Part shown: positions 10,145 through 25,896 of the stretch, piece by piece
How positions within the stretch are numbered: position 1 is the first letter of the stretch
How the letters are laid out: each line of letters begins with the position of its first letter
NCBI GenBank assembly: GCA_001790955.1
Contig: MGDP01000039.1
Coordinates: 193-64,192, forward strand
Origin: Candidatus Tectomicrobia bacterium RIFCSPLOWO2_12_FULL_69_37
Lineage (GTDB): Bacteria; UBA8248
Direction of reading: 5' to 3'
DNA length: 64,000 nt
Translations under genes and position numbers: made by a program
The notes under the pieces: model-generated
Told to the model about the DNA's origin: nothing
Database searches by the model: none
Seen by the model: only the letters and a program-made list of their open reading frames with translations

Positions 10145-10950
10145 GATTCACCTCCCGAGGAGGAGCCGTTCTTCTCATCGCGTCCATTTCGGATCCGCCG
10201 CTGGATGACCCACGAAACGGCCCCCAAAGCGACTGCCAGCCCGATCTTGACGTGGGGCACCACCTGCATGGCCGTCTTGGTGTACTCGCGCAGCGAAATC
10301 TTCGGGAGGTCGGTGCGGTAGCCCAGCACCTCGAACGGCACGTTGGACAGGTGAAGCACGCAGGTCCCGCCGACCTCGTCCTTCCCATAGATGTGGTGGA
10401 CGTACCCTCGCGGGTTGCGGTGGATCCGGTTCTCGGCCTCTGCGATGAGATCCTCCCGCTCGCCGAAGACGATGGCGTCCGTCGGGCAGACCTTCGCGCA
10501 GGCCGGCTCCTCCCCCGCCGCCACCCGGTCGGCGCACATGGTGCACTTGGTGATTTTGGGGATGGCCTTGTCCCACTCGAAGCGCGGGACCAGGAACGGG
10601 CAGGCAAGCTGGCAGTAGCGGCAGCCGAGACACCGATCCGGGTCGTAAACGACGGGACCCTCCTTGGTCTTCTGCAACGCGGACACAGGACATGCCGTGG
10701 CGCACGAAGGCTCAATGCAGTGGAAGCACTGAAGATGGCCGAACACCCACTCGAAGCGCCCGTTGGTCTGCGCTTCGTTGTAGGTCACGACCCGCCACGT
10801 CTTCGACGAAAGATCCCGCGGGTTTTGATACCCCTTGGGGGACGCGAAGAAGCGGGTCTTCTCGGCCGGAAGCTCGTTCCACTCCTTGCAGGCCACCTGG
10901 CAGCCCCGGCAGCCGACGCAGCGCGTCACGTCGATGAGGAGCGCTTTCAC
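10141..10950 (-). CDS. fdhB: formate dehydrogenase iron-sulfur subunit (FdnH-like, 4x[4Fe-4S], C-terminal TM anchor)
   Basis: Multiple CxxCxxCxxxCP ferredoxin motifs (CVGCRGCQVAC, CFHCIEPSCATACP, CLGCRYCQLACP, CTMCADR...CAKVCP). C-terminal hydrophobic helix. Overlaps fdhA by 4 nt. Confidence 0.85.
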   Translation of the reverse strand: MKALLIDVTRCVGCRGCQVACKEWNELPAEKTRFFASPKGYQNPRDLSSKTWRVVTYNEAQTNGRFEWVFGHLQCFHCIEPSCATACPVSALQKTKEGPVVYDPDRCLGCRYCQLACPFLVPRFEWDKAIPKITKCTMCADRVAAGEEPACAKVCPTDAIVFGEREDLIAEAENRIHRNPRGYVHHIYGKDEVGGTCVLHLSNVPFEVLGYRTDLPKISLREYTKTAMQVVPHVKIGLAVALGAVSWVIQRRIRNGRDEKNGSSSGGES

Positions 10951-13900
10951 GACGCACCTCCCTTCGCCTTATAGACGTTGCAGAGGAACGCCTTGTACTC
11001 CGGGATCATGGTGTTGGCGTCCCCCACGTGCGGCGTCAGGACGTTCGCGCTGTCGCCCTTGACGATGCCTTGGTAGCCGAAGTGCCAGATAACGCCGACC
11101 TCGTGGACGATCTTCCCGTTGTGCCGGAAGGGCTCGAAGCGGCGCGTCACCAGGGCGTAGCCGCTCATCTTGCCCCGCGCCGTCTCCAGGGTGACGCGGT
11201 CTCCGTTCTGAACGCCCTTCTGCCGGGCGAGGTCCACTCCCATCTCGACGAAGACATCCGGCACCAGCTCCGCCAGCCAGGGCAGGTTGCGCGTCATCGC
11301 CCCGGCCTGCCAGTGCTCGCTCACGCGGTAGGTCGTCCCCACGATCGGGAAGCGGTCGGCGGTCCCGACGGCGTTCATCTCGGGTGCGTCCTTGTGCCAG
11401 AGCTTGATGGCCGGGTTGACCTGCTGCCGCGACATCATGTTCGGCAGCGGGCTCTCCAAGGGCTCATAGTGCTCGGGCAGAGGCCCGTCGTTGAGGTTGC
11501 CAGCGAAGAGCCACGCGTGGCCGTCCGGCTTCATGATGAAGGGATGCTTCTCCCCCGGCGGCCACGGGCCGTCAGGCACGTCGCCCTCCCACTGTTTTTT
11601 CCCGGCGTTCCAGCGGATGACCCACCGCTTGGGGTTCCAGGGCTTGCCGGTGGGGTCGACCGAGGCGCGGTTGTAGAGGATCCGCCGGTTGACCGGCCAG
11701 CACCACGCCCAATCGGGGTAGAGGCCGATCCCGTTCATGGCGTCCCGTTTGCTCCGCCGGGCCATCTTGTTGTCCTTCTTCTCCGGGCCGGCGTAGCTGT
11801 TGCAGTAGAGCCAGTTGCCAGAGCAGGTGGAGCCGTCGTCCTGCAGCAGGGCGAAGCCGGGAACCTGCTCGCCCTTCTTGTACTGTCTGCCGCCGACGGT
11901 CTTCTCCTGGGTGAAGTAGCCGTTGATTTCCTTCGCCACCCGGTGCACGTCGGGCTCCTTGCGGACGTCGACCTCCTCGCCCGTGCCGTAGTCCCAGGCG
12001 AGGCGGGTGATGGGCTCGGGGAAGACGCCGCCCGCCGCGTACTCCTTCTTCACCGCCTTGCACAGGGCGTCCAGGATCCACAGGTCGGACCGGGAGTTCC
12101 CCACCGGATGGACCGCCGCGTAGCGCCACTGCGCCCAGCGGGCGCTGTTCGTGATGCTCCCTTCTTTCTCCACCGAAGACGCCGACGGTAGGAGGAATAT
12201 CTCGGTCTTGATGTCGGCGGGCTTCACGCCCGGGCGCTTCCAGATCGATGCCGTCTCCGTCTCCCAGAGATCGACGGCCACCATCCAATCGAGCTTCTCC
12301 AGCGCCTTGATCTCCTTGTTCGTGTTCGGCCCGCCGACCGCCGGGTTCTGACCGAAGAGCATGAGACCCTTGATCTGGCCTGCATACATCGCCTCGAACA
12401 GCGATATCCACGAGTAGTCGCCGCTGCGCTTGGGGATGTAGCTGAACGCGAAGTCGTTCTCCCGAGCGGCGTGGCCGCCGTACCAGGCTTTGAGCAGCGA
12501 GACGATGTACTTCGGATAGTTACCCCACCAGTTGGCCGATTTCGGGTCGTTCGTCCTGGGTGTGTTGCTCGCCAGGTAGGCCGCGAGCGATTGGTCGGCG
12601 GCGGTGGGCGAGGCCAGGTAGCCCGGCAGGATGTGGAAGAGCAGGGCCATGTCGGTGGAGCCCTGCACGTTGGACTCGCCCCGGAGGGCGTTCACCCCCC
12701 CGCCCGCCAAGCCGACGTTGCCCAGGAGGAGCTGGAGGATCGCGTAGGTCCGGATGTTCTGGGTCCCGTGCGTGTGCTGGGTCGCCCCCATGGCGTAAAG
12801 CCAGGTGCCCACGCGGTCGGGCGCCCAGGTCGAGGTGTAATGGCGGCAGACCTGGAGATAGACATCCCGCGGCGCGCCGGTGATGTTGCACACCGTGTCC
12901 ACGTCATAGCGCTGAAAATGTTTCTTCAACAGCTGGAACGCGCAGCGGGGGTGTTGGAGGGTCATGTCCCGCACCGGCATGCCTTTCCCATCGAGCTCGT
13001 ACGCCCAGTGGGACTTGTCGTAGCTGCGAGACGCCGGGTTGTAGCCCGTGAACAGGCCGTCATCGAATCCGTACTTTTCAGAGATGATGAACGAGGCATT
13101 CGTGTAGTTGAGGACGTAGTCCTTCTGGACGAAATCGTTCTGGAGAGCATAGTTGATCATCCCGCCCACGAAAGCGATGTCGGTGCCGCTACGGAACTTG
13201 CAGTAGACGTCGGCGAAGGAAGAGGTACGGGTGTAGCGCGGATCCGCACTGACGACGATGGCCCCCTTCTCTTTCGCGCGTGTTATCCATTTCGTGGCGA
13301 TGGGATGGTTCTCCGCCGCGTTCGAGCCCATGATCATGATCACGTCGGCGTGGACCATGTCGCTCCAGTGATTGGTCATCGCGCCCCGCCCGAAGGTCGC
13401 CGCCAAACTGGCGACGGTGGAGCTGTGTCATATCCGCGCCTGGTGCTCCAGGTAGGCGACCCCCAGCGCCCGGGCGAGCTTCGAGTAGAGGTAGCACTCC
13501 TCGTTGTCCAGCGCCGCGCCGCCGAGGCACGCGATGCCCTCGGTTCGGTTCACGGTCCTGCCCCCCTCCTCGCGGCGGAAGGTGGCGTCGCGGGTGCGCT
13601 TGATGCGCTTGGCGATCTCCGGGACGGCCCACTCCCAGGTCTTCTCCTCCCAGCGGCTACCCCCCGGGGCCCGGTAGAGGACGCTCCGCAGGCGCCGCTC
13701 GTTCACCGCCACCTGATAGAGGGCCATGCCCTTGGAGCAGAGCGAGCCTTCGTTGATGGGGTGATCGGGGTCGCCTTCGATGCTGACCACCTTCCCGTCC
13801 CTGGCAGAGACGATGAGCCCGCACCCCACCCCGCAGTACGGGCATATGGTCGTCGACTGCTTGGTGCGAACCGTCTTCATCGGGGGTGTTTGGGCGGCGT

Positions 13901-13994
13901 GGGCCCTCCCTTTTTGAGGGCCGAAAAGAGAGACGGCCGTCCCCAGTGCGCTTCCGCCCGTTGCCCCCAAAAAGGTACGCCGCGAAATCTTCAT
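10947..13994 (-). CDS. fdhA: formate dehydrogenase catalytic subunit (FdnG/FdoG-like, molybdopterin, TAT-exported), in-frame TGA = Sec at 13428..13430
   Basis: TAT signal MKISRRTFLGATGG. Fe-S cluster motif CPYCGVGCG. Track ORFs 13428..13994 and 10947..13406 are in frame, separated by TGA plus 7 codons. Read-through gives '...YLEHQARI-U-HSSTVASLAATFGRGAMTNHWSDM...', almost identical to E. coli FdnG 'NQARVUHGPTVASLAPTFGRGAMTNHW'. Total 1015 aa, the same length as FdnG. Confidence 0.9.
13396..13415 (-). promoter_or_regulatory. candidate SECIS hairpin for fdhA
   Basis: Minus-strand mRNA has stem gucgcc / ggcgac with a GU-containing loop, starting about 12 nt after the UGA. Confidence 0.4.
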
Positions 13995-14098
13995 CGCCCT
14001 CCCCTCCAGTCACGATTCACCTGGCACCGTCTTCGCTTGCAGCGATTCATCCTCACCTGCGTCATCCGCGCCCCAGGCCCGTGCGCCTCCTTTCCCCC

Positions 14099-14965
14099 TC
14101 AGGGGTCCACCGAAGCGGCCGCGAGGAGCGGATGCGGGGCAAATCCGGCGCTCGCCGCGAGGAGGTCGAGCGCGCGGGTCCCCAAGTAGAACACATCAAA
14201 GGAAAATGCTTCGGCCGATAAGGCGGACATGACCTCCTTGATGTATTTCCCGCAGCGGGCGCAGGTGTGCGCGCGGAAGGACGGCTCGGCCTCTGCGCTG
14301 ATCAAATTAAGCGCTTCCTGGTCCTCGTTGAGGCAATAAGGGCACTGAAGTCGGCCGTAGGGCCAGTGCGTCCCGCAGAGCAGGCACCACAGCGTCCGGC
14401 GGCCCTCCACCGACTGGATGTGCGCCAAGGCCGGCCAATTCCCGCACACCGGGCAATGGCCCCGGTGCCACTTCCCCAGGTCCACCTCCCGGGTCAGCTC
14501 CAGGGCCGCCTGCGCGCGGAATGGACGCGCCAGGTAGACCGCAATGAAAGTGAGCAAACCTTCATCCACGCCCAGTCTCTTCGCTGCCCCGAGAATCTCC
14601 TCAGACCGACCACGGAACACAAGCGAGACGAAATCTTTCGGCGGGATTTCCCCCGCCGCGAATGCCCCTTGGATCCGTCCGAGGGCGTCCTCGCGGTCAG
14701 GCAGACGCTTTCTCAGCAGGTCCAGCAAGACCGATGCAACTTCTTTGCAAGCTTTGGGAGCGAATCGATATTCTGAGGCGCGAAGAACAGAGCGTCCGCT
14801 TTCCAGAAAACCGGCGATTGAATCGGGAAATTCCTGAGGAGGCTGGGATTCAAACAGGGAGGCGCTGCGGAATTCCTGAAGAAAATTTCCTATTTCCGCA
14901 TGAATCGGTGGGAAGGCGGAAAGGCCTTTCTCGAGGGAAGAATCGTTGCGCGGTGGGGCTTTCAT
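14099..14965 (-). CDS. fdhE: formate dehydrogenase accessory protein FdhE
   Basis: C-terminal motifs 'WHRGHCPVCGNWP', 'LWCLLCGTHW', 'CPYC', 'CARCGKY' match FdhE. The track ORF extends to 15343 but would overlap fdhD. Start placed at the internal Met (MKAPPRND...). Confidence 0.7.
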   Translation of the reverse strand: MKAPPRNDSSLEKGLSAFPPIHAEIGNFLQEFRSASLFESQPPQEFPDSIAGFLESGRSVLRASEYRFAPKACKEVASVLLDLLRKRLPDREDALGRIQGAFAAGEIPPKDFVSLVFRGRSEEILGAAKRLGVDEGLLTFIAVYLARPFRAQAALELTREVDLGKWHRGHCPVCGNWPALAHIQSVEGRRTLWCLLCGTHWPYGRLQCPYCLNEDQEALNLISAEAEPSFRAHTCARCGKYIKEVMSALSAEAFSFDVFYLGTRALDLLAASAGFAPHPLLAAASVDP

Positions 14966-15203
14966 GGGCTCTGCCCCCTTCGGGAGGGGCCGGCTCCCTG
15001 AAAACCGCCAAAACCACCCTTGGGAGGAGCAATTTCCTTGCCACGCAGCCCAGCCATGTCCCCCAAGAAAGCGAGCCGCTGCCCGTGGTAAATACCCCAC
15101 GCTCCTGCAACCCGCGCGGGAAGATGAGACAAAAAATCCCTTCCCCGGGACTGAATGCCACATCTCCTTCGACCCCGGGACGAGCGAATTTCTGGTTCTC
15201 TCC

Positions 15204-16061
15204 TTACCGGACGCTCCTCTCCTTGGTACAACCAAAATTAAGGGATGAGGCGTCCGAGCATGCCCAGGCGGTTTTCCCTTCCCAGCACGAACCCGTGCCG
15301 GAGGCGAGACCCTCGGGGTGGGCGTAGACAGTAAATTGGTCATGTGTCACATAGCCGATGAGGGTGATCCCTAGGCGCTTCGCCAAGTCGATCGACAAGC
15401 TGGTCGGCGAGGTCCGGGAAATCACGAAGGGAACCTTCATCTGCGCCGCTTTCCGGAGCATTTCTGAAGAAATGCGCCCGCTGCTCGCCAGGATATGCTC
15501 GCGCGGATCAATTCCCCTCACGAGCACTTCCCCGCGGAGCTTGTCCAGGGTGTTGTGACGACCGATATCCTCTGCCACCGCGATCAGCCCTTCTCCGTCG
15601 AAGAGCGCCGCCGCGTGGATTCCGCGAGATTGGTGGTAGAGTTCGGCCGCTTCGATCAGCTGATGCATCAGCGACGGCACCGCATCCGGGTTTAGGACGC
15701 CTTCGGCGCGGATGGGAGCATAATCCCGAACATCCAGGTGGAACGTCACTCCGCCGGCGCAGCCCGAGGTCAAAATCCGCGGCCTCGATGACGGGAGAGG
15801 CCGATTCAGCTCGACATGGGCCTCGAATTCATTCTCGTCCACCTCAAGGCTCTTCACATCGCCAAGCGAATCAATGACCCGCTCGAAGGCAAGAAAGCCC
15901 AGAGCCAGCTCCCGGAGCTTCAGCGGGGTGCACATCAACGTCGCAAGCTCCTTGTTCTCCACCAAAATGCGGAAGGCGATTTCGCGCACCACGGGAATCT
16001 TGGCGGGTGAGAAAACTCCATTCGCATAGCGGTAGATAGTAAAGTCCATGTTGCCATCCAT
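15204..16061 (-). CDS. fdhD: formate dehydrogenase accessory sulfurtransferase FdhD
   Basis: Motifs 'SGCAGG', 'EDIGRHNTLDKLRG', 'ITLIGYV...FTVYAHPEGL' align with E. coli FdhD (EDVGRHVALDKL, LTLVGF, ATVYTHPQRL). Start chosen at MDGNMDF. Confidence 0.75.
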   Translation of the reverse strand: MDGNMDFTIYRYANGVFSPAKIPVVREIAFRILVENKELATLMCTPLKLRELALGFLAFERVIDSLGDVKSLEVDENEFEAHVELNRPLPSSRPRILTSGCAGGVTFHLDVRDYAPIRAEGVLNPDAVPSLMHQLIEAAELYHQSRGIHAAALFDGEGLIAVAEDIGRHNTLDKLRGEVLVRGIDPREHILASSGRISSEMLRKAAQMKVPFVISRTSPTSLSIDLAKRLGITLIGYVTHDQFTVYAHPEGLASGTGSCWEGKTAWACSDASSLNFGCTKERSVR

Positions 16062-16468
16062 CAATCGCTGCGGGCTTGCCAAGTCGTCCTTTCCGCAAGC
16101 CGCCAGAGAACTTCCCTCCACTCCATCACAGCCTTGTCATGCAAGTTTGCTGCCACGCGCTCCCCCATCGCTCATGAAGAACCAATCACCGAAACCCGGC
16201 TTTCCCCCGATCTCCTCTTTCCGGCCCAGCGATCGTGCAAACCACATCTTGAATCCTCCCTTGCGACAGCTCCCTTCCCGCCTCGCCAGGTCCACCTCCA
16301 GCTGCCGGGCCGCCTCTTTTCTGGGCGGGGCCCAGCTTCACCGGCACGTCTTGAGCAGTGCGCCGGGCGTCCGGGGCTTGTCCTCCAAAGCGTGTGTCCA
16401 AGGAGCTGGATTATTTTTGGAGCAGACGGGAAGCCCGAAGAGGGGAAGCCTCTAGAACCCCCCCCCGC

Positions 16469-16921
16469 TCACTTCTCCCGGGGAGGCATCAGGGTGCGGA
16501 TATAGGCGACCAGGGACCGGACCTCGTCTTCGCTGAGGGCCTCTCCCCAGGCGGGCATGGCGGGGGACTTCTGGACCGCGGCCCCTCCTCGCTTGATGAT
16601 CTCGAACATCGCCGCGTCCGTGATCCGGCTGGCGAACGCCTTGTCCGAGTAATTGCGCGGCTTGGGATTCAGGGCGGCGGCGGCCGGCCCATCCCCCCTG
16701 CCCGAGGGGCCGTGGCAAACGGCGCACAACTGCTGGAACTTCTCCTTCGCGAGCCTCAAATCCACCGGCGCGGCCGAGGCGGACACAGAGGGCCAGAACG
16801 CCAGGGCGAGGAGGCAGGCGAGGCCGCGCCGGCGAAGGAGGGAAACCCTCTTCTCATCGGGAAACTTGGCCAATGCGTCCCCCGCCTCCGGGCGGCAAGA
16901 AAATCCCCCGTGCAACTCCAT
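16469..16921 (-). CDS. monoheme class I c-type cytochrome (c551/c552-like)
   Basis: Signal peptide, single CAVCH, Met-rich C-terminal region (SPAMPAWG). Start set at the internal Met; upstream part of the track ORF is unlikely to be coding. Confidence 0.6.
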   Translation of the reverse strand: MELHGGFSCRPEAGDALAKFPDEKRVSLLRRRGLACLLALAFWPSVSASAAPVDLRLAKEKFQQLCAVCHGPSGRGDGPAAAALNPKPRNYSDKAFASRITDAAMFEIIKRGGAAVQKSPAMPAWGEALSEDEVRSLVAYIRTLMPPREK

Positions 16922-16998
16922 ACGAAGAAAAAGGCCCCTCGTCCAGCGCCTTCTCGAGCCGGACGAGGGGCAAGCAGACCGGGTCCCCCGATAAGCGT

Positions 16999-17343
16999 CT
17001 ATTTCTTCGCGGGATGGCACTTCACGCATTCGGTGATTGGGAAGGCCTTCTGCCCGTTGTGACAGGCGCCGCAGTATTTCCCCGCGAGGAGGTCGGCGAC
17101 CATGATTGGCTTCCCCTCGGTGGTCGCGCCCTTCTTCATCTGGAAGATCTGGACATGACAGGCCGTGCACTCCGGGTTTTTCGCCTGGTGCGTCTTATGG
17201 CTGAAGGTGACGGGCGTCTGGTCCTTGGTCTGCGTGTACTTGATGTCCTCGGGAACCGGCATCTGCGAGTAGGCCCACACCGCGCTCAAGGTGACCGCCA
17301 GAACGGCCGCCGCCGCCAAACCCCATCGCGTCCATTTGCCCAT
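16999..17343 (-). CDS. triheme cytochrome c7 (PpcA-like)
   Basis: Signal peptide MGKWTRWGLAAAAVLAV. Three CxxCH motifs (CTACH, CGACH, CVKCH). 'VTFSHKTHQ' is a c7/c3 hallmark. About 114 aa. Confidence 0.7.
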   Translation of the reverse strand: MGKWTRWGLAAAAVLAVTLSAVWAYSQMPVPEDIKYTQTKDQTPVTFSHKTHQAKNPECTACHVQIFQMKKGATTEGKPIMVADLLAGKYCGACHNGQKAFPITECVKCHPAKK

Positions 17344-17486
17344 GTTCAAAGCTCCTTCTCCTTGTTCCCGAGAGACACAACCCCAGACCCTGCAGCCTCG
17401 GCTCTCCTGAGACGAGAGAACTTCGGCGCCATGATACTCAACCCAAGCCCGTCTGCAACCGGGAACGACCGCCAGCGCCAATCGTC

Positions 17487-19037
17487 CTATCGAACTTTCT
17501 TCGCCTCGATATCCGCCTTCGTGCCCAGCCCCAGCGTGTACTCGAAGGAGACGTGGTGGCGGCGGGTGGTTACGTGATCGTCGTGGATAGCGAAGGCGAT
17601 GGGATAGGTCTCCCCGTCCTTCAGGATCACGTCATCCTCGGGATGGCCCGTGTCGAGCTTGCGCTTGAGGATGAGGGTATATTTGCCCATCTTCTCGCCG
17701 GCCTTCCTCAAGAAGACCCCGTAGGCCTGGATGTCGCCCCGGCTCCCGTCCGGCGCCCGGAGGACGCGCTGGTAGAGGATGTCTCCCTCCTTGGGCTTGT
17801 AGACCTTGGGATCATAGGGAACCGCATTCTTGCCCAGGGTCGTGAGGAAGGCGATGGTCTCCTGGTCCTTGATCACCGGCAGGGGGTTCTTCCCGCCCTG
17901 GATGGCATACTCGCCCCCGCCCAGCCGGCCGGAGGGAACCGCCTGGGGATTGAACATGAAGCCCTTGGGGGGGGTCGCGTTCAGGTCCGCGGGCCGCTGC
18001 ATCTGCCAGAGGCCCTTCCCCCTGTCGCCGTTCCGGTAATCGAAGATCCACATGTCGTCGGCGTAGCCGATGTGGCCTGCGCGCGCGGCCCGCCACATCC
18101 ACATGTCGAGGAACTGGCCCTTCTTCCGCATCCCGGCCAGCTCTTCCTTGCCCTTGAGGAGCGACCAGCGCCCCTCGGCCTCGGTCGCGCCCTTCTTCTC
18201 CTTGGGGTCGCCCGCCTGGGCCGCGTTGCGGGTGGCGAGGAGGTACTTCCGGATGTCGCTCTGCTTCGGGAAGACCGATTTCACGCCCTTGTTGTTGAGC
18301 GCGTCGTAGGGCATGTCCCGCATGCTGTTGTGGCAGGTGATGAAGCAGCCGGCCGACTGGAAGCCGGCGGGGGTGCCCGCGTCCGCCGGGACGTGGCCGG
18401 GGGCGCCCTGCTTGTAGCCGAGGAGGAAGGTGAGCCGGTCCTCATAGAGCCCGGGGGACTTATCGGGCTTGAACCCGCCGTAGCCCACCCACTTCTTGCC
18501 GTCGAAGCGCATCGCGTTGTGGTAGGCGCCGGGCTCCTCGCTCTCCCACTGGAGCCAGAAGTACATGTTCTGGGCGTCGTAGGCGGCCTTGACGGCGAGG
18601 TCGACGGTGGGGCGCTTGCCGGGGATCGGCTTGTCCTCGGCGGGCCCCTTGGGGACGAGCTTCTTGCCGAGCGCCTCTTCGTCCGGCCCCGCTCCTCCCG
18701 TCACATGGCAGGTGCGGCAGGCGACGCCCGTCTTGACCACCGGCCCGCCCAGATGCGTAAAGTCCTTCTGGGGGTTCACCAGGCGATCCCAGGAGGCTTG
18801 GCCGGGGTAGAAGAGACGGATGCTCCTCGCCGGGATACCTTCCCATTTCACGGGGACATCCTTAGGCTGAAACGTCGGGATCTCCGGCTTGACCTCACTT
18901 CTCGCGGCCGCCCAGGATGGAGCCGCACCTAGCAGAAGGACCGCCGTACTCACGAGGGCAAGCACGAAAGAGGCCAGGCCCCGACCCAGGCGCTGTTCAG
19001 CAACAGGTCCAGCATCTCGATGAAAAAATGCCATCAT
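17487..19037 (-). CDS. diheme c-type cytochrome fused to an EB_dh/DOMON-like heme-binding domain
   Basis: Signal peptide. CRTCH and CFITCH motifs. C-terminal ~200 aa resemble the ethylbenzene-dehydrogenase gamma-subunit-like (EB_dh) fold. Confidence 0.55.
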   Translation of the reverse strand: MMAFFHRDAGPVAEQRLGRGLASFVLALVSTAVLLLGAAPSWAAARSEVKPEIPTFQPKDVPVKWEGIPARSIRLFYPGQASWDRLVNPQKDFTHLGGPVVKTGVACRTCHVTGGAGPDEEALGKKLVPKGPAEDKPIPGKRPTVDLAVKAAYDAQNMYFWLQWESEEPGAYHNAMRFDGKKWVGYGGFKPDKSPGLYEDRLTFLLGYKQGAPGHVPADAGTPAGFQSAGCFITCHNSMRDMPYDALNNKGVKSVFPKQSDIRKYLLATRNAAQAGDPKEKKGATEAEGRWSLLKGKEELAGMRKKGQFLDMWMWRAARAGHIGYADDMWIFDYRNGDRGKGLWQMQRPADLNATPPKGFMFNPQAVPSGRLGGGEYAIQGGKNPLPVIKDQETIAFLTTLGKNAVPYDPKVYKPKEGDILYQRVLRAPDGSRGDIQAYGVFLRKAGEKMGKYTLILKRKLDTGHPEDDVILKDGETYPIAFAIHDDHVTTRRHHVSFEYTLGLGTKADIEAKKVR

Positions 19038-19096
19038 GTGCTACCTCCTTTTTCTTGGGACGGCCCAAAACCGCCCCCGAGAACCCGGCGGATGCC

Positions 19097-20356
19097 CTAA
19101 ACCCCGCCCGGGGACTTCCTCTCCATCTCCCGGAGCTTCAGGAAAAGAAGCAACGCCAGAACAACGGTCAGCACAATCGGAAGAATGACCCACCTCCTGC
19201 GGGCCTCAAACTCCTTCAGGGCGCCAAGCGCCGTTTGCAGGGCTCCCTGGGCCACTTTATTGCCAATCTGAGCCTCTTTCTCAACCTCCTTCAGCGCGAA
19301 GGAATGGACCTGAGTGCGCACCTTGATGAGCATCGTGCGGGCCTCCTTCATGCTGAACTTGGCCTCCGAGACTTCCATGCCCAGCCGCTCGGCCTTCTCC
19401 AGCTCTTCCGTCGCGCGGTGGATCAGGCTCTTGAGATCCTCGATCTGCTTGCGCATCCCGGCGGCCACCCGCAACTGCGGCGACCCCGCGGCGTGGCAGC
19501 TGACACACACCGCCGGGGACTTGTCGCCGATCATGGCCTCGGATACGCGCACCACCTTGTGGTTCGAGTGGCAGACCACGCACTCGGGAAGCTTCATCCG
19601 CTCGAACGCCGGCTTATGCGGGCTCTTCACGAAGAGATCCCGGTTGTTCACGTGGCACTGCCCGCACATCCCGCTCACCGAACTCACGGCCGGGGGGAAA
19701 GCGCCGTGGTTGCCGTGGCAGTCGTTGCAGGTGGGGGCCGAGAGCTCCCGCTTCTTGATCAAGAGATCGGCATGGACGCTCTGGAGGTAGTTCTCGAGCT
19801 GATTGGTCGGGATCTTGTAATCCTTCATGTATGCCTTGTCCGCGTGGCACTTGGAGCAAGTGCCGGCCACCTTCGGCGCGTAGACGGTGGAATTGGCATG
19901 CGCGGCGGGGAGGATGCCGTGCGCGTTATGGCAGCTCGCGCAAGTCGCGACCTTCACGTCCCCTTTCGCAAGGCGCTGCCCGTGCACGCTCGTCTGGTAG
20001 GCCTTGTGCTGATCGACCGCGATGGACGGGCTGAACCGGCGCATGAAGGCGAGATCCCCGTGGCACTTGTCGCACAGGGCGGGGATCTCGGCCGGCTTGG
20101 GCACGCCGGTGTAGCCCTTCTCCTTGGACATAGAGACTTTGACGTCGAAGGAGGCGGGATCCCCGCCGTGGCAATTCACGCAGGAGAAGCCCTTCTGCGC
20201 ATGGATGTCGGCCTCCAGCATCTTCGCGGGGGCGCCCAGCTTCCCCGGCAGCGCGCGGTGGCACTGAACGCAGGAGTCGGGCTGGGGCGCCGCCGCCCGG
20301 CTCTCCGGAGCCGCGAGGAGAAACACGGCCGCCGCCCCCAGGGCCGAAAACACCAT
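19097..20356 (-). CDS. nonaheme c-type cytochrome with C-terminal membrane anchor
   Basis: Start MVFSALGAAAVFLLAAP (signal peptide). Nine CxxCH motifs (CVQCH, CVNCH, CDKCH, CASCH, CSKCH, CNDCH, CGQCH, CVVCH, CVSCH). C-terminal TM helix. The 901-aa track ORF merges this gene with the antisense of cytochrome b. Confidence 0.75.
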   Translation of the reverse strand: MVFSALGAAAVFLLAAPESRAAAPQPDSCVQCHRALPGKLGAPAKMLEADIHAQKGFSCVNCHGGDPASFDVKVSMSKEKGYTGVPKPAEIPALCDKCHGDLAFMRRFSPSIAVDQHKAYQTSVHGQRLAKGDVKVATCASCHNAHGILPAAHANSTVYAPKVAGTCSKCHADKAYMKDYKIPTNQLENYLQSVHADLLIKKRELSAPTCNDCHGNHGAFPPAVSSVSGMCGQCHVNNRDLFVKSPHKPAFERMKLPECVVCHSNHKVVRVSEAMIGDKSPAVCVSCHAAGSPQLRVAAGMRKQIEDLKSLIHRATEELEKAERLGMEVSEAKFSMKEARTMLIKVRTQVHSFALKEVEKEAQIGNKVAQGALQTALGALKEFEARRRWVILPIVLTVVLALLLFLKLREMERKSPGGV

Positions 20357-20388
20357 CCGCCGCCAAGAATTTCCGCGCACCGCAGACC

Positions 20389-21480
20389 TCAATAAGGTTT
20401 GAAGTAGGCCAGCGATGTCATGGTGGCCAAAAAGACGATCACCGCCACTCCATACGCCGTCACCAGCCAGTGCCGCCTCCCCTCCCTCGACCAGCGGTCC
20501 CAGAAGGGTACCAGGAAGAAGATCAGCCCGCCCGCCCCGATGGCGTACACCCCCAGGGCCTCCCCCTCCATCCCCATGACCTTGGCCGGGATGTACTTGA
20601 GCGACTGGGACATGAACGTGAAGAACCATTCGGGGCGGATCCCCGCCGGGGCGGAGGCGAGCGGATCGGCCTTCTCGCCCACCTCCCAGGGGAGGTACAC
20701 CGAGAGCACGGCGAGCAGGCCGAGGACGACCACCCACACGATGCCTTCCCGCAGGACGAAGTTCGGGATGAAGGGAATTCCCCTCGCTTTCTGCTGGCCG
20801 AGGGGCTGGCTCATCCCCAGGAGCTGAATCAGGAGCAGATGAAGCCCCAGGAAAATCGTGAAGATGGGGGGAAGGATCGCGACATGAAGCGCGAAGAACC
20901 GGGTGAGGGTGGGCCCGCTGATCTCGCTCGCGCCGAGGAGGAAGTTGCGCATCCCCTCGCCCACGACGGGGATGACCTTCGTGACGTCGGTCCCGATCTT
21001 GGTGGCGAAATAGGAAAGCTTCGTCCAGGGGAGGAGATAGCCGGAGAAGCCGAACGTCATGGACAGCACGAGGAGGACGAACCCCGTCACCCAGACCAGC
21101 TCGCGGGGGGGGCGGTAGGCGCGCATGAAGTAGACGCTGAACATGTGGATGAACAGCGCCAGGATCATCAGATTGGCCGACCAGCTGTGGATGGATCGGA
21201 TCAGCCAGCCGAAGGGAACCTTGGCCGAGATGAGGAGCACGCTCTCGTACGCCCCCTCCGGCGCGGGGACGTAGTAGAACATGAGCAGGATTCCCGTCAT
21301 CACCTGCACGCAAAACAGCAACAGGGCGACCCCGCCGAAAAGATAGAAGAAAGTGCCCTTGTGCCAGGGAACCTCTTTGTGGCGGAGGAACTCGACGACG
21401 CCGGAGAGAGGGGCTCGGCTCTCCAGCCAGGAAGCGAGCCGCTCGGACCTGTTCCCGGGGGATTGGGCCATTTGCGTCAA
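20389..21480 (-). CDS. cytochrome b (long bc-complex type, b6 plus subunit IV fused)
   Basis: 363 aa polytopic protein. Conserved cytochrome b signatures (SIHSWSANLMI, heme-ligand histidines, PEWFF). 4-nt overlap with the Rieske gene. Confidence 0.85.
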   Translation of the reverse strand: MTQMAQSPGNRSERLASWLESRAPLSGVVEFLRHKEVPWHKGTFFYLFGGVALLLFCVQVMTGILLMFYYVPAPEGAYESVLLISAKVPFGWLIRSIHSWSANLMILALFIHMFSVYFMRAYRPPRELVWVTGFVLLVLSMTFGFSGYLLPWTKLSYFATKIGTDVTKVIPVVGEGMRNFLLGASEISGPTLTRFFALHVAILPPIFTIFLGLHLLLIQLLGMSQPLGQQKARGIPFIPNFVLREGIVWVVVLGLLAVLSVYLPWEVGEKADPLASAPAGIRPEWFFTFMSQSLKYIPAKVMGMEGEALGVYAIGAGGLIFFLVPFWDRWSREGRRHWLVTAYGVAVIVFLATMTSLAYFKPY

Positions 21481-21929
21481 ACCTTCCGCGCGGAGACGAA
21501 GATTTCCTCGCCGCGGACCGCCACATCATAGGCCGCCAGCGGCGTGGGGGGAGGGCCCGCGATGTTGCGGCCGAACAGATCGAAGTGGCCGTTGTGGCAG
21601 GCGCACCAGATGTGCTCCAGGTCGGCCCGGTATTGGACGGTGCAGGACAGATGGGTGCACGTGGCGCTGAAGGCGCGGTACTCGCCCCCGGGCGTCCGGA
21701 CCAGGATGCCGATCGACCCGCCGAAGCGGAACAGCTTCGCGGTATTGGGCTTGATCTCGGATGTCGAGGCCACCCGGACGGTGTCCACATGCGCGACGGC
21801 AAAGCGCGAAGGGAGAAGAAAGCGGAAAACTGGGTACACCATGGTGCCCAGGAGGGCCAGGATGCCGCCCCCCAGGAAGTAATCCAGGACGCTCCTTCGG
21901 GTCAGCGAGAACCGGCTTTCCGATGCCAT
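21477..21929 (-). CDS. Rieske [2Fe-2S] iron-sulfur protein
   Basis: TAT-like N-terminus (SLTRRSVLD), TM anchor, Rieske boxes CTHLSC and CACHNGHF. Start set at the internal Met (MASESRF...). Confidence 0.8.
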   Translation of the reverse strand: MASESRFSLTRRSVLDYFLGGGILALLGTMVYPVFRFLLPSRFAVAHVDTVRVASTSEIKPNTAKLFRFGGSIGILVRTPGGEYRAFSATCTHLSCTVQYRADLEHIWCACHNGHFDLFGRNIAGPPPTPLAAYDVAVRGEEIFVSARKV

Positions 21930-22590
21930 TCGGAATACCCCCTCCTTCAAGTCTCTCCACGGCAACATTCTATTCTTGGCGCTGCACCACCCCAAGGGAA
22001 AGCGGCCATTCCCGACGCGAGACGGCCCCATCCGGGCGGACGGGACCCCACGAACCTCGCTTTTCCCTCTGCGGCTGCCAGCCAAGCCGGGGAACGGGGG
22101 TCCCCCGAAACGGCAATCACATCACGTGCCTTGCCGATAAAGGCAAGAAGCACACGTCTGAGTTGAGAATTTCAACGGAGGGCCAAGTCGTAATATGAAA
22201 CGGTTCCCAGCCCCTGTCAACGAGAAAACCCCCGCTTGAGGCCAAGATTGCATCCGAAGGAACCACCCAAAAGTTAAGTATTGCTTAACACTCTCAGGTT
22301 GGTGAGAACTTTGACAATTTGGCCACCTTGCGGGCGCAGGGACCGAGAGAATATCGGATGCCGGTCAAAAAACTGTTGCATTGGATATCATAATCCCCTA
22401 TCTTTTATGGCGTGGTGATTATCAACACTTGAAGATTCATCGGCCCTCCCTGAATTTCCGGCAGATCTCCGAAGCGTGTCTTTGAGGCCCCTTTCGTGGG
22501 TTGGGGCCAGAAGTTCTTCTGCGCTCGCGGTCAACGGGCGCGGGAGAATCTGATATCTCATTGCGAAACTCACATCTCTCGGAGAGCTTC

Positions 22591-23595
22591 ATGGGGGCGA
22601 CACAGAAGCACCAGCGAAAGGGAAAGCAGATGGTTTTCCTTGTACTTGCTTTCGTTGCCCTTCTGGCCGCGGGCGGCTGCTCCTCCGGTGACCGAGCCCC
22701 CGCCGCCAAAGCCCCGCCCGCCGCAGCCGCAGCCGCTTCCCGCACGACGGCAACCCAGGCCCGCGCGCAGGCCGCCTCCGCCCAGTATGTGGGTGACAGA
22801 GCCTGCATCGCCTGCCACAAGGACGCCGCCGAGAAATACGCCAAGACCCTCATGGGCAAGACCCTGAGCGGCCCGGCCCGGCCCGGCGTCCAGCGGGTGG
22901 ACTGCGAGTCCTGCCATGGGCCCGCCTCGGCCCACGTCGCCGCCGGCGGCGGGAAAGGGAAGGGGATCCTGGTCACCTTCCGCAGCGGCATCGAGCTGGC
23001 CGCGGTCCAGAACCAGCCGTGCCTCAAGTGCCACGAGAGCGACGAGCGGCGCTACTGGAAGTCGAGCGCCCACGACTCGCGCGACGTCTCCTGCGTCAGC
23101 TGCCACAAGCTGATGGAGAACGTCTCGGACCGCTTCGCCCTCGCCAAGCCCACCCAGAACGACACCTGCGCCCAGTGCCACCTCGTCCGGAAGGCCCAGA
23201 GCTTCCGCAACGCCCACATGGCCGCGCGGGAGGGGGCGACGCAGTGCTCCAACTGCCACGCCCCGCACGGCTCGCCCACCGAGAAGCTCCTGAAGGGCAA
23301 CTCCGTCAACGAGAACTGCTACAACTGCCATCCCGAGAAGCGGGGGCCCTTCATCTTCGAGCACGCCCCCGTGCGCGAGAGCTGCACCAACTGCCACGAG
23401 CCCCACGGCACCCTCAACGACAACCTCCTGAAGATGCGGCGGCCCCGGCTGTGCCAATCGTGCCACGTGGAGGGGCGCCATCCCTCCTCGGCGGGCCTGG
23501 CCAATACGGTCTACACGTTCGGGGCCTCCTGCCTGAACTGCCACAGCCGTGTCCACGGGTCGAATCATCCCTCGGGGAACTTCTTCCTGAGGTAA
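22591..23595 (+). CDS. periplasmic decaheme c-type cytochrome, MtrA/DmsE/PioA family
   Basis: Signal peptide with a possible lipobox (LLAAGGC). Ten CxxCH motifs in about 330 aa. Followed 47 nt downstream by a large beta-barrel gene. Confidence 0.75.
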   Translation: MGATQKHQRKGKQMVFLVLAFVALLAAGGCSSGDRAPAAKAPPAAAAAASRTTATQARAQAASAQYVGDRACIACHKDAAEKYAKTLMGKTLSGPARPGVQRVDCESCHGPASAHVAAGGGKGKGILVTFRSGIELAAVQNQPCLKCHESDERRYWKSSAHDSRDVSCVSCHKLMENVSDRFALAKPTQNDTCAQCHLVRKAQSFRNAHMAAREGATQCSNCHAPHGSPTEKLLKGNSVNENCYNCHPEKRGPFIFEHAPVRESCTNCHEPHGTLNDNLLKMRRPRLCQSCHVEGRHPSSAGLANTVYTFGASCLNCHSRVHGSNHPSGNFFLR

Positions 23596-23642
23596 GGGAC
23601 TTCAGCCGGATTCATTTGGGGACGCCCCAGCCGTAAGGAGAC

Positions 23643-25835
23643 ATGAAGATGATGCCGAGGGCGGCGAGGACACCATTCATGCTTGGGCTGCTCGTGGCGG
23701 CGATTGCCCTGCTCGCCGCACCGGCCGACGCGCAAGAGCTCAAGCTCGGCGACTACACGATCTCGGGTGACTTGGAAGGCGGCGTCCGCCAGCTCTACGG
23801 CGAGCGCCGGGACAGCCGGTTCAACGAGTTCCGGGAAATCCCCCAGGGGCTGTTCTTCCCCGGCCTCCGGCTGGACGTCGGCAAGCCCGGCTACTATTAC
23901 GAGCTCCGGGCCGAGGACCTGCTGGAGAACGATCAGTCCCTCCGCTTCTCGCTGGGGTCGCCGGGCCTCTACCGCCTGGACGTGGAGTGGAACGAGCTCC
24001 AGCACATGTTCAAGAACCAGGCCATCACCCCCTACTCCGGCGTGGGGGGGAGCGACCTCACGATCGACTCCGCCGTCCGGACGGTGATTCAGGGCCAAAG
24101 CAGCTCCGCGCAGATCACCAGCGTGGACAGCCTCTTCCGAAGCGGGCACAGGGAGGTCATCGGTTTCGACCGCGACCGGGCCGAGGTGAAGTTCAGGACC
24201 ATGCTGGCGCCGGACTTCACCGTCAAGACGTATTACAAGAACGAGCGCTGGGACGGCACCCGGCCCATCAATATGCTGTTCGGCAGCAGCCCCGGCGGCC
24301 GCCCGTTCATCGAGCTCCCGATGCCCGTGGACTACCGCCACGACGTGGTCCGTCTCGCTCTCGAGTGGGCCCGGAACGGCAACTCCCTCGAGGTGGGCTA
24401 CGAGGGCTCCTTCTTCGAAAACCGCTACGGCAGCGTGACCTTCAGCAACCCCTTCCGGGGGACGGATGCCTCCAGCACCCCCGCCCGGGGCCGCTTCGCC
24501 CTGGACCCGGACAACCAGGCCCACTACCTCAACGTCCACGGCGCCTTCAACCTGCCGGCCGAGACCCGCCTGATGGGCACCTTCTCCTACGGCTGGCTGA
24601 CCCAGGACGAGACCTTCGTCCCCCACACCATCAACACCGCCCTCACCAGCTCGACCCTCACCCTCCCCCGGAACAGCCTGGACGGGGAGCTCAACCCGAC
24701 CCTCGTCAACCTCGTCCTGACCAACCGGGCGATCCACAACCTCACCATCACGGGCCGCTACCGCTACTACGACCTGGAGAACAACACCAAGCACATCGAG
24801 TTCCCGGGCCACACCGTGGGCGACGTGAGCCAGGTGACCACCTCGACCCTGGAGAACTCCCGCATCGAGTACACCCGCCAGAACGCGGGCGTGGACCTGA
24901 GCTACCGCCTCAGCAACAACCTCAAGCTGAGCGGCGGCTACGAGTGGAGGAAAGCGGACTACCACGAGCTCCACGCCAAGGAGAACCAAGAGGACCGGGC
25001 CAAGGTCAGCCTGGATATCAAGGCCAACAACTGGCTCATGATCCGGCCCGCCTACATCTACTCCGACCGGAGCGTCTCGGGCTACGTGGCCCAGAGCCTC
25101 CCCACGCAGGCGGAGCGGCGGGAGTTCAACCTGGCCGAGCGCGAGCGGCACGAGGGCAAGCTGATGGCCCGGATCATGCCCTCCGACAGGTTCTCCATCA
25201 CCTTCGAGGGCGGCCTCGGGACCGAGGACTACAACGCCAAGTACGGCCTGGACGAGGGCTACGTGTGGAACGCCTCCGTCGAGGTGGCGGTGACCCCCGT
25301 CGACTGGCTCAACATGTTCGCGAGCTACACCCACGAGAGGGTTTTCGGCAAGATCCACTCGGTCCAGAACAGCCGCGTCGGCGGCGTGGATACCTTCTTC
25401 GACGTGGACGCCTGGACGATGAAGTTCACGGACGACTACGACGTCATCCGCGCGGGCTTCGACCTCCTCCTCTACGAGAACAAGGAGAAGGGCCGGAAGG
25501 TCACCGCCCGGGCCGAGATGTCCTACGCCTACAGCAGCGGGGAGACGAGGAACTCCAAGGACGACCCCGCTTCTACCGTTGTTGCCACCGAGAACTGGCC
25601 CGACATCAAGGCCAAGCTGTGGGGGGTGTTCACCCGGGTGGACTACCACCTGAGCAAGCACTTCTCCATCGGCGCGGGCTACAACTACGAGCGCTACACC
25701 CTCGACGACTTCACGCAGCGGTGGGTGGACGTAGTCGTGCCCTCGCAGATCAGCACGCGGGTGTACTCCCTCGGCGACCGGCTGGACAACTACGAGGCCC
25801 ACACCGTGGCCATGTTCGCCCGCTGGCGCTTCTGA
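23643..25835 (+). CDS. MtrB/PioB-family outer-membrane beta-barrel (porin-cytochrome conduit)
   Basis: Signal peptide, 730 aa, alternating amphipathic composition rich in Y/G/N/D, C-terminal aromatic beta-signal '...ARWRF'. Sits immediately after the decaheme cytochrome. Confidence 0.65.
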   Translation: MKMMPRAARTPFMLGLLVAAIALLAAPADAQELKLGDYTISGDLEGGVRQLYGERRDSRFNEFREIPQGLFFPGLRLDVGKPGYYYELRAEDLLENDQSLRFSLGSPGLYRLDVEWNELQHMFKNQAITPYSGVGGSDLTIDSAVRTVIQGQSSSAQITSVDSLFRSGHREVIGFDRDRAEVKFRTMLAPDFTVKTYYKNERWDGTRPINMLFGSSPGGRPFIELPMPVDYRHDVVRLALEWARNGNSLEVGYEGSFFENRYGSVTFSNPFRGTDASSTPARGRFALDPDNQAHYLNVHGAFNLPAETRLMGTFSYGWLTQDETFVPHTINTALTSSTLTLPRNSLDGELNPTLVNLVLTNRAIHNLTITGRYRYYDLENNTKHIEFPGHTVGDVSQVTTSTLENSRIEYTRQNAGVDLSYRLSNNLKLSGGYEWRKADYHELHAKENQEDRAKVSLDIKANNWLMIRPAYIYSDRSVSGYVAQSLPTQAERREFNLAERERHEGKLMARIMPSDRFSITFEGGLGTEDYNAKYGLDEGYVWNASVEVAVTPVDWLNMFASYTHERVFGKIHSVQNSRVGGVDTFFDVDAWTMKFTDDYDVIRAGFDLLLYENKEKGRKVTARAEMSYAYSSGETRNSKDDPASTVVATENWPDIKAKLWGVFTRVDYHLSKHFSIGAGYNYERYTLDDFTQRWVDVVVPSQISTRVYSLGDRLDNYEAHTVAMFARWRF

Positions 25836-25863
25836 CCCGCCTTCACGGCCGCTGGACGCAAAA

Positions 25864-25896
25864 GGGGGGCCATCGAAAGATGGCCCCCCTTCTATT
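25864..25896. terminator. rho-independent terminator-like hairpin between convergent genes
   Basis: ggggggccatc-gaaa-gatggcccccc followed by ttctatt. Lies between the MtrB-like gene (+) and the cupin gene (-). Confidence 0.55.

Follow-up and report, generated by a model that had tools for sequence, protein, structure and literature searches.

A Rieske/cytochrome b/nonaheme operon divergent from an MtrAB-type conduit in a Candidatus Tectomicrobia genome: a probable electron route between the quinone pool and the cell surface

Current models of extracellular electron transfer rest on CymA in Shewanella and on ImcH and CbcL in Geobacter for the oxidation of quinol, and two major surveys, one of Mtr systems and one of the quinol oxidases of extracellular electron transfer, omit Rieske/cytochrome b complexes. 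Castelle et al. (2013) described, as a genomic prediction, an Mtr cluster of Zixibacteria RBG-1 containing MtrA, MtrB, monoheme and multiheme cytochromes, and PetAB (PMC3903129); FeGenie (2020) recorded mtrAB homologs in a Tectomicrobia genome (PMC7005843); and the Geobacter extHIJKLMNOPQS genes bring a Rieske protein, a cytochrome b, multiheme cytochromes, and a porin together (PMC5877670). Kao and Hunte (2014) grouped Chlorobi, NC10, and Acidobacteria cytochromes b as a single PEWY clade (PMC4122944), and Dibrova (2017) drew attention to “large conserved operons” of unknown function that encode long cytochromes b (PMC5600118). Here we analyze a 64,000-nucleotide (nt) stretch of contig MGDP01000039.1 from Candidatus Tectomicrobia bacterium RIFCSPLOWO2_12_FULL_69_37 (referred to as the window), in which an operon for a Rieske protein, a cytochrome b, and a nonaheme cytochrome c lies divergent from genes for an MtrAB-type porin-cytochrome conduit. 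We propose that the products of the two divergent operons would together carry electrons between the membrane (mena)quinone pool and the cell surface. We consider this architecture, and the coupling of the two operons into a single electron route, likely; for the direction of flow, our preferred reading is coupled, outward electron transfer, which we narrowly favor over inward flow and to which we assign a probability of roughly 40%.

A sequence-only reading of this DNA had listed eight genes, and analysis of open reading frames (ORFs), profiles, and motifs recovered every one of them at the following positions (aa, amino acids; TM, transmembrane).

16469-16921, minus strand: class-I monoheme cytochrome c, ~95 aa when mature, start codon uncertain (PF13442, PF00034)
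16999-17343, minus strand: c7-type triheme periplasmic cytochrome, 114 aa (TIGR04257, 75.6 bits versus a cutoff of 40; PF14522)
17487-19037, minus strand: periplasmic EB_dh-domain cytochrome, 516 aa (PF09459, E = 3.6e-40)
19097-20356, minus strand: nonaheme cytochrome c, 419 aa (nine CxxCH motifs, signal peptide, C-terminal TM helix at residues 390-408)
20389-21480, minus strand: long cytochrome b, 363 aa (PF00033, E = 9e-50; PF00032, subunit IV part, E = 4e-8)
21477-21929, minus strand: Rieske 2Fe-2S subunit, 150 aa, N-terminal TM anchor (PF00355, E = 2e-12)
22591-23595, plus strand: MtrA/DmsE-family decaheme cytochrome, 334 aa (ten CxxCH motifs; TIGR03508, 241.8 bits versus a cutoff of 192.2)
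23643-25835, plus strand: MtrB/PioB-family outer-membrane barrel, 730 aa (PF11854, E = 1.2e-118; TIGR03509, 344 bits versus a cutoff of 240.05)

An alternative call of the cytochrome b gene (L001; L numbers denote individual loci) starts at 21471 and gives 360 aa. A long ORF listed at 19097-21802 consists of the nonaheme gene and, upstream of it, a spurious extension running over cytochrome b in a different frame.

The inner-membrane part is a variant complex III in which the nonaheme cytochrome stands where cytochrome c1 or f would be. The defining features of the Rieske/cytochrome b superfamily are all present, namely, the Rieske cluster boxes (CTHLSC and CACHNGHF), the four heme-ligating histidines of cytochrome b (His98, His112, His199, and His214), and a Qo motif of the PEWY type (PEWF). 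Box II of the Rieske protein reads C[AP]CHNG family-wide, the canonical form being CPCHGS, and its best NCBIfam matches were b6f-type Rieske proteins, every one of them below cutoff. Cytochrome b joins a b6-like four-helix part to a subunit-IV-like part and has ~7 to 8 hydrophobic segments. The solved chain nearest to its N-terminal half is spinach chloroplast b6 (6RQF; E = 1.6e-55), and the heme cn cysteine of b6 (FYCLGG) is replaced by leucine (FYLFGG). The usual third redox subunit, c1, or f with heme cn, is absent: no protein of the operon matched the cytochrome c1 or f families in the Pfam scan, and no c1-like CxxCH ORF lies elsewhere in the 64-kb window, in agreement with the earlier statement that cytochrome c1 is lacking. 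The nonaheme cytochrome with its C-terminal TM helix occupies that position; examination of 19097..20356 for heme motifs and TM segments bore out the earlier description of a membrane-anchored nonaheme protein, which also has a helical hairpin. In an alignment of 19 homologs, nine of the nine CxxCH motifs are invariant, along with seven or eight further histidines and several methionines, and because these additional residues are invariant, the alignment suggests that the hemes are mostly bis-His ligated, with one or two His/Met. A sequence search found no relative of this protein in the PDB, and Foldseek comparison of its AlphaFold2 model (pLDDT 77) with the PDB returned nothing at E <= 0.001, with the helical tail alone aligned. 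The nonaheme has no solved or characterized relative, yet a profile run against one genome per GTDB species found 554 relatives in reference genomes.

The outer-membrane part is predicted to be a two-component MtrAB-type conduit, with a lipid-anchored decaheme cytochrome inside an MtrB/PioB barrel. The alignment of the decaheme protein with 6R2Q_A begins at the first heme motif and extends through HGSNHPSG at the C terminus (E = 1.2e-65), and the barrel matches 6R2Q_B over residues 80 to 721 (E = 1.5e-32). 6R2Q is the structure of the Shewanella baltica MtrCAB complex. NrfB models scored far under their cutoffs for the decaheme protein (59 versus 184 and 43.9 versus 166.6), so that the possibility of an NrfB relative, which would have overturned the earlier assignment, falls away; the description of a lipobox-bearing MtrA/DmsE cytochrome stands on the TIGR03508 score, the ten heme motifs, and the sequence LLAAGGC. 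This lipobox is followed by a Pro/Ala-rich (Pro/Ala/Ser-rich) tether of 35 to 40 residues, and the protein thus does not conform to a soluble periplasmic cytochrome with an ordinary signal peptide. The lipobox, in the form LLA[AV]GGC[ST]S, and the tether are kept in the window and in L002 to L004 and are absent from nine more distant MtrA homologs. Canonical MtrA proteins are not known to be lipoproteins or to have a lipobox or a long tether. The mtrB gene starts 48 nt past mtrA, in the order A then B, and the barrel has a signal peptide (...LLAAPADA/QE) and ends in an aromatic beta-signal (...ARWRF). PF11854 covers residues 80 to 729 with 397.9 bits against a cutoff of 23, and this match, the above-cutoff TIGR03509 score, and the match to 6R2Q_B uphold the earlier MtrB/PioB assignment. 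A 728-aa form, differing in its start codon, occurs on European Nucleotide Archive (ENA) contig ERZ4903185 k141_2701140. We discarded the idea that the barrel is rare, which came from a word-index search with 13 matches; that search undercounted, and an exhaustive search gave 2,275 clusters at 50% identity. Only the sub-clade of the window is small and isolated: a single representative reaches 56% identity, and the next one stands at 35%. Cysteine is absent from this MtrB and from its four close homologs.

Several lines of evidence connect the two halves. The same divergent layout is found in four related contigs (L002, L003, L004, and L005), drawn from Logan SRR22388342, Hainich groundwater assembly ERZ1292660, ERZ27256875, and GCA_016192135.1, a metagenome-assembled genome that NCBI names “Candidatus Tectomicrobia bacterium”; their MtrB proteins are 70 to 77% identical to that of the window. 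Each contig carries Rieske, cytochrome b, nonaheme, c7, and monoheme genes opposite MtrA and MtrB, followed by cupin and GFO/IDH/MocA genes, so that the synteny comparison proposed earlier showed the divergent pair to be held together. The loci differ in two ways, in the presence of the EB_dh gene and in the genes downstream of the monoheme cytochrome c. The region between the two operons, given earlier as 660 nt, is present and measures 661 nt. It contains two promoter-like elements.

21930-22590, no strand assigned: divergent control region, 661 nt (633 to 661 nt in four loci)
22177-22220, minus strand: promoter-like element directed toward the Rieske gene, TTGACA, 17 nt, CATATT, 7 nt, GGCCCTCC (22184-22177), found by consensus scan
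22376-22449, plus strand: promoter-like element directed toward mtrA, TTGCAT, 17 nt, TATCTT, GGCCCTCC (22442-22449), N6-TCCGGC

Across the window, L002, L003, and L004, the only invariant blocks of the spacer are these two elements and an inverted pair, GGAGGGCC / GGCCCTCC. The Rieske-side element keeps its position and the form TTGACA, 17 nt, cATAtT, 7 nt, GGCCCTCC, and the mtrA-side element reads TTGCrn, 17 nt, TAtnTT, GGCCCTCC, N6-TCCGGC. Both leaders thus hold the identical 8-mer, GGCCCTCC, in sense orientation. With 18 matches versus 13.9 expected, the window shows no enrichment of this 8-mer, which would count as evidence through its conserved position only. It may be a candidate regulator-binding site or an anti-Shine-Dalgarno element; CCCUCC is complementary to the Shine-Dalgarno sequence of the Rieske gene, GGAGGG. 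RNAalifold analysis of the mtrA leader gave -8.4 kcal/mol and hardly any covariation, which does not amount to a convincing RNA structure. The two operons are probably coregulated.

The association recurs outside this lineage. Neighborhoods were taken from the best 80 loci of the nonaheme profile search, which are mostly from Acidobacteriota and otherwise from Binatia, Methylomirabilota/Rokubacteria, KSB1, Aminicenantes, Zixibacteria RBG-1, Nitrospinota, Gemmatimonadales, and Calditrichota. The Rieske, cytochrome b, and nonaheme genes (the module) adjoin one another in 75 of these 80. In L056, L074, and L076 (Acidobacteriaceae/Acidiferrum), MtrA and MtrB homologs that phmmer recognizes lie beside the module on the same strand, operon-like; in L080 (Aminicenantales), such homologs are divergent from it. 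At least 17 of the 80 loci, from Acidobacteriota, Aminicenantes, and Binatia, have within ~5 kb a decaheme cytochrome ending in ...HGSN....F that is followed by a secreted protein of 630 to 950 aa with an aromatic C terminus. Among the Acidobacteriota, secreted proteins of 700 to 880 aa are encoded just upstream of Rieske and after a decaheme gene in L023, L027, L029, L033, L041, L047, L052, L062, L079, L083, and L088. Eight large proteins that phmmer had not recognized (from six of those loci and from L014 and L022) were compared with Pfam; seven matched nothing, the eighth matched generic porin/β-barrel models alone, and none matched MtrB/PioB. Profile-profile alignment with hhalign, by contrast, aligned the Pyrinomonadaceae/Blastocatellia set with MtrB at 97.7% probability (E = 2.5e-12; 555 columns) and the Terriglobia set at 84.8% probability (E = 6.5e-6). 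By these alignments, the large Acidobacteriota proteins are remote homologs of MtrB/PioB, and current Pfam and FeGenie-type screens probably miss these conduits.

A census of the 3.5 kb downstream of the module, which took in 125 ORFs from 51 loci, counted 53 Cytochrome_C7, 36 c3-type, 15 MtrC/MtrF-domain, 7 b561-type cytochrome b, and 6 NapC/NirT proteins, and no terminal-oxidase family was among its 25 commonest families. Several proteins of 650 to 750 aa near the module are multiheme cytochromes c fused to b561-type cytochromes b, which is the architecture of Geobacter CbcL. Such CbcL-like fusions, with b561/HydC-type cytochromes b, occur in Acidobacteriota at L021:6375-8318, L023:16513-18513, L043:11267-13276, L047:13343-15610, and L076:5860-7878. 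Because the census is dominated by multiheme cytochromes and includes CbcL-like fusions, the module appears typically to sit in multiheme “islands,” and because at least 17 of the 80 loci carry the decaheme and MtrB-like pair, its pairing with an outer-membrane conduit would be no accident. The earlier view of the two operons as one quinone-to-surface route is thus backed by synteny in four contigs, by conserved promoters and a common leader motif, and by recurrence in other phyla.

The remaining genes of the minus-strand operon encode periplasmic carriers. The c7 and monoheme cytochromes are kept in L002 to L007. Triheme c7 proteins are the periplasmic shuttle type of Geobacter. We considered Cyt579 as an identity for the monoheme cytochrome and rejected it (40 bits versus a cutoff of 280). 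The EB_dh cytochrome had been described as diheme, and two heme sites are indeed present, but the second departs from the standard motif: one is CxxCH (C107) and the other is CX3CH, “CFITCH” (C231), which lies inside the EB_dh domain. Since neither site varies in 13 homologs reaching down to 40% identity, the protein is plausibly a diheme cytochrome c. A sequence search of the PDB found no match to it, and the proposal that it corresponds to Leptospirillum Cyt572 was discarded, Cyt572 being a Cyc2-like fused porin-cytochrome and not an EB_dh protein. The EB_dh gene belongs to the operon of the window and is absent from the syntenic operons of L002 to L005; its homologs adjoin other Rieske/cytochrome b sets in L081 and L090. 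In L090 (Logan SRR3439553, 436-10208), a 73%-identical homolog lies between two Rieske/cytochrome b gene sets, one with a cytochrome b fused to cytochrome c and the other lying after a gene for a GltD-like FAD/FeS NAD(P) oxidoreductase, an arrangement reminiscent of anammox R/b-2. At L038:12027-14906, a 960-aa EB_dh protein with a type IX secretion system (T9SS) C-terminal sorting domain adjoins the module, and because of that domain, EB_dh heme proteins are suggested to be exportable to the cell surface in some lineages. In another Tectomicrobia genome, a 76%-identical homolog (L089, GCA_016190025.1, 1-10908) stands beside a Porin_O_P gene and an iron-uptake set consisting of an Fe-dependent repressor, hemP, an FTR1/FtrD-like permease, and an ABC transporter, and a link between this cytochrome family and iron is possible.

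In the reading that we prefer, quinol would be oxidized at the Qo site, with the Q cycle conserving energy, and the Rieske electron would pass along the nonaheme wire to the c7 and/or monoheme cytochrome, to MtrA, and out of the cell. The final acceptor would have to be of fairly high potential and able to reach the barrel mouth; candidates would be chelated Fe(III), Mn(III/IV), and oxidized humic quinones. Outward flow to an extracellular high-potential acceptor would therefore give a heterotroph an alternative outlet to oxygen. For this direction speak the wide distribution of the module in heterotrophic phyla among the best 80 loci and the presence in its neighborhoods of parts typical of reducers, namely, MtrC/MtrF-domain proteins and CbcL-like fusions. 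So do the lack of oxidases among the 25 commonest families of the census, the heterotrophic metabolism encoded by the rest of the window, and the c7 triheme as a shuttle of the Geobacter type. Complex-III-type enzymes, moreover, normally run forward. Campylobacter Qcr is a Rieske/cytochrome b complex that can feed periplasmic reductases, with acceptors down to +130 mV (PMC6195509).

Several observations weigh against outward flow. No surface cytochrome of the MtrC/OmcA type (TIGR03507) is encoded in the 64-kb window, in which the only CxxCH ORFs outside the cluster are a diheme cytochrome c at 8303-8836 and an 11-heme cytochrome at 36710-37948, with no match to an MtrC/OmcA model; this is the pattern of the Fe(II)-oxidizing MtoAB and PioAB systems. 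The barrel is free of cysteine and so lacks an N-terminal CXXC. That motif reportedly marks the MtrB proteins of metal-reducing Gammaproteobacteria, an observation attributed to Wee in 2014 and cited in PMC12175506. MtrA-type bis-His hemes usually lie much lower in potential than +150 to 200 mV. The Rieske protein of the Chlorobi/NC10/Acidobacteria-type clade is predicted to lie at ~+150 to 200 mV (PMC4122944). Because the Rieske center would thus stand above the MtrA-type hemes, forward flow would include uphill steps, and low-potential Fe(III) oxides would be out of reach. Castelle et al. favored oxidation for the analogous RBG-1 cluster (PMC3903129), and the formate dehydrogenase next to the operon, which would supply quinol, is not conserved in relatives.

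The same wire could run in reverse, in an Mto/Pio-type uptake of electrons, and we regard this as quite possible, if not what we expect. Extracellular Fe(II), or Mn(II), reduced humics, or minerals, would be oxidized at MtrAB, and electrons would pass through the c7 and monoheme cytochromes to the membrane-anchored nonaheme hub and from there either downhill, to a terminal oxidase whose genes lie elsewhere, or uphill, to quinone via a reversed Rieske/cytochrome b complex. The conduit of two components, for which the window encodes no MtrC-type partner, the cysteine-free MtrB, and the class-I monoheme cytochrome, analogous to MtoD, all fit inward flow, as does the step from low-potential hemes to a Rieske center at +150 to 200 mV, which would be downhill. 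The nearest named relative of the barrel comes from a Zetaproteobacterium, and the next MtrB clade (L008, 32% identity) is accompanied by NapC/NirT, monoheme c, EB_dh, and Cu-oxidase genes in an Mto-like layout. The bc1 complex is known to reverse in Acidithiobacillus (PMC10654088), and Castelle et al. applied the same reasoning to RBG-1 (PMC3903129). However, the window and its relatives look heterotrophic, with no carbon-fixation or oxidase genes nearby, and reverse electron flow is mainly a need of autotrophs. In other phyla the partners of the module are CbcL-like and MtrC/MtrF-like, typical of reducers, and FeGenie classes the Tectomicrobia genes as mtrAB, i.e., as reduction genes (PMC7005843).

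A second alternative, which we consider improbable, is that the operons are neighbors and not partners, with the Rieske/cytochrome b/nonaheme complex serving as an ordinary complex III for terminal oxidases and MtrAB using another inner-membrane quinol dehydrogenase, encoded elsewhere. In its favor, a recognizable conduit is missing from 63 of the 80 module loci, the search for NapC/NirT, ImcH, and CbcL genes was confined to the 64-kb window, and the two main surveys are silent on Rieske or bc complexes. The adjacency seen in three or more phyla, where the genes are either divergent or on one strand and operon-like, argues against it, as do the conservation of both promoters and of the common leader motif and the census neighbors, which are multiheme cytochromes and not oxidases. 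By a rough estimate, chance would place a conduit within 5 kb in well under 1% of loci, compared with the 21% observed.

The formate dehydrogenase (fdh) genes near the operon bear on a narrower version of outward flow.

8303-16121, minus strand: periplasmic formate dehydrogenase cluster (FdhD, FdhE-like, FdnG, HybA/FdnH-like, NrfD/HybB-like, diheme cytochrome c)

This cluster, already noticed from the sequence, includes FdhD, an FdhE-like protein, HybA/FdnH-like and NrfD/HybB-like subunits, and a selenocysteine-containing FdnG (TGA at 13428-13430, context ARI-U-HS; TIGR01553, 1077 bits). It has an NrfD/HybB-type subunit in place of an FdnI-type cytochrome b. Its last gene, at 8303-8836, encodes a diheme cytochrome c with a TM anchor, through which electrons from formate could enter the c-type cytochrome pool directly; the cluster as a whole could deliver electrons to either the quinone or the c pool. 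The link drawn earlier from formate through quinone to the bc complex did not carry over to relatives, since fdh holds this position in the window alone and is replaced by a Qrc/ACIII-like module (L002 and L003) or by unrelated genes (L004 and L005). That module, at L002:467-3410 and L003:3-3658, comprises four genes, for a QrcA-like multiheme cytochrome, a QrcB-like molybdopterin-family protein, a 4Fe-4S protein, and NrfD, all scoring under the equivalog cutoffs. A dedicated formate-driven metal-reduction unit, running from formate dehydrogenase through quinone and the bc complex to MtrAB, is very unlikely: a complete periplasmic selenocysteine enzyme does lie on the same strand ~400 nt downstream of the monoheme gene, and a scan for terminators and promoters from that gene to fdhD showed no clear terminator, but because fdh is not conserved at this position in relatives, a dedicated chain to MtrAB has no support there, and the quinone pool could be fed by any quinone-reducing dehydrogenase.

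Throughout the window, real genes were recognized by a GC3 of ~0.8 to 0.95 of their ORFs, the G+C content being 61 to 72%. Rfam and tRNA scans of the window gave no matches, as did a first scan of reference genomes with single-sequence peptide patterns, and the rest of its genes point to heterotrophic metabolism (transporters, acyl-CoA dehydrogenases, and thiamine pyrophosphate [TPP] enzymes). Two further features deserve description.

36710-37948, plus strand: probable selenocysteine-containing 11-heme cytochrome c, with an in-frame TGA at 36872-36874
37962-38888, plus strand: secreted rhodanese-like sulfurtransferase, the gene after the 11-heme cytochrome, with a weak ExtH match

The first part of the 11-heme gene encodes a signal peptide and a single CxxCH and stops at the TGA, in frame with a decaheme ORF; a hairpin (CCCCC-GGUC-GGGGG) lies 13 nt past the TGA. 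The TGA, its context (EG[ES][GS]-U-[AG][AG]), and a covarying hairpin (GCCUCC...GGAGGC) are kept in L091 to L094, down to 44% identity, and the protein, which no curated NCBIfam family covers, probably contains selenocysteine. The pair that it forms with the rhodanese-like protein recalls ExtKL/ExtH of Geobacter. Genes for component B of glycine/sarcosine/betaine reductase are found at 3777-6165 on the plus strand (PF09338; GRDB, PF07355), and because these genes, FdnG, and the heme selenoprotein occur together, the window suggests that the organism uses selenocysteine extensively.

A broader proposal is that the Rieske/cytochrome b/nonaheme complex with an MtrAB-like conduit represents a widespread, overlooked class of trans-envelope pathway in Acidobacteriota, Tectomicrobia, Aminicenantes, and Zixibacteria, whose inner-membrane step would be a proton-motive Q cycle and not CymA, ImcH, or CbcL. 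We regard this as doubtful in its full extent. Were it true, the complex would be an energy-conserving “complex III for extracellular acceptors,” which might work beside CbcL-like enzymes as a potential-tiered set, comparable to ImcH, CbcL, and CbcBA in Geobacter. Acidobacteriota, Tectomicrobia, and Aminicenantes, phyla abundant in soil and groundwater, would gain a route to extracellular redox partners, one that would conserve energy via the Q cycle if flow is outward, and estimates of which organisms cycle iron, manganese, and humics in soils and aquifers would change. The proposal raises the question of whether, and at which potentials, a Q-cycle enzyme can be connected to multiheme chains.

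Compared with Shewanella MtrCAB (6R2Q) and DmsEF, the conduit has the same MtrA/DmsE decaheme and MtrB/PioB barrel, encoded by adjacent genes in the order A then B. It differs in that no MtrC/OmcA surface decaheme is encoded in the window and no CymA nearby, that MtrA has a lipobox and a long tether, that MtrB lacks the N-terminal CXXC, and that relatives of the barrel outside its own sub-clade are at most 35% identical. With MtoAB of Sideroxydans and PioAB of Rhodopseudomonas it shares the restriction to A and B, without a surface cytochrome, and a monoheme class-I cytochrome c encoded alongside, as with MtoD; there is no gene for a C component in the window, and monoheme c and c7 genes stand in the divergent operon. 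Models of Fe(II) oxidizers also invoke a bc-type complex downstream. In contrast with those systems, the inner-membrane partner is Rieske/cytochrome b/nonaheme rather than a NapC/NirT protein (CymA/ImoA) or a HiPIP (PioC), and the organism looks heterotrophic. The module also occurs in Zixibacteria RBG-1 (L067); no MtrAB was found within ±10 kb of it, and it may be a locus other than the published cluster. In the Tectomicrobia version, which belongs to another phylum, MtrA is lipidated, the carriers include c7 and EB_dh, and the genes are divergent.

The Geobacter Cbc6/ext genes resemble the locus in setting a Rieske protein (ExtO), a b6-like cytochrome b (ExtP), and multiheme cytochromes beside an outer-membrane porin. 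However, the cytochrome b ExtP is short and accompanied by a separate membrane protein, ExtI is a porin that bears no relation to MtrB, and neither the cytochrome b of the window (212.2 bits versus the ExtP cutoff of 290) nor the nonaheme (15.8 bits versus the ExtM cutoff of 800) reaches the score of its counterpart. With b6f/bc1 complexes, the clade of Kao and Hunte, and clade G' of Dibrova, the module shares the Rieske boxes, the four b-heme histidines, PEW[Y/F], a b6-like N-terminal half, and a long fused cytochrome b, and from shared taxa we infer that it belongs to the Chlorobi/NC10/Acidobacteria clade and to clade G'. It departs from b6f/bc1 in having the nonaheme for c1 or f, no heme cn cysteine, and a Rieske box II of CxCHNG instead of CPCHGS. 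The R/b-2 and R/b-3 complexes of the anammox bacterium Kuenenia likewise combine a Rieske/cytochrome b core with multiheme cytochrome c subunits instead of c1, but their cytochrome b is split, and they include HAO-like or NAD(P) oxidoreductase subunits, of which none is found here; an anammox-like cluster, that of L090, does host a homolog of the EB_dh cytochrome. The arrangement is less new than the sequence-only reading implied, being preceded by Castelle et al. and by FeGenie, and all of its parts belong to known families. What is added here is the cross-phylum breadth of the association, the remote Acidobacteriota homologs of MtrB, the lipidated variant of MtrA, the conserved dual promoters with their common leader motif, and the recurrent link between EB_dh diheme cytochromes and Rieske/cytochrome b gene sets (L081 and L090).

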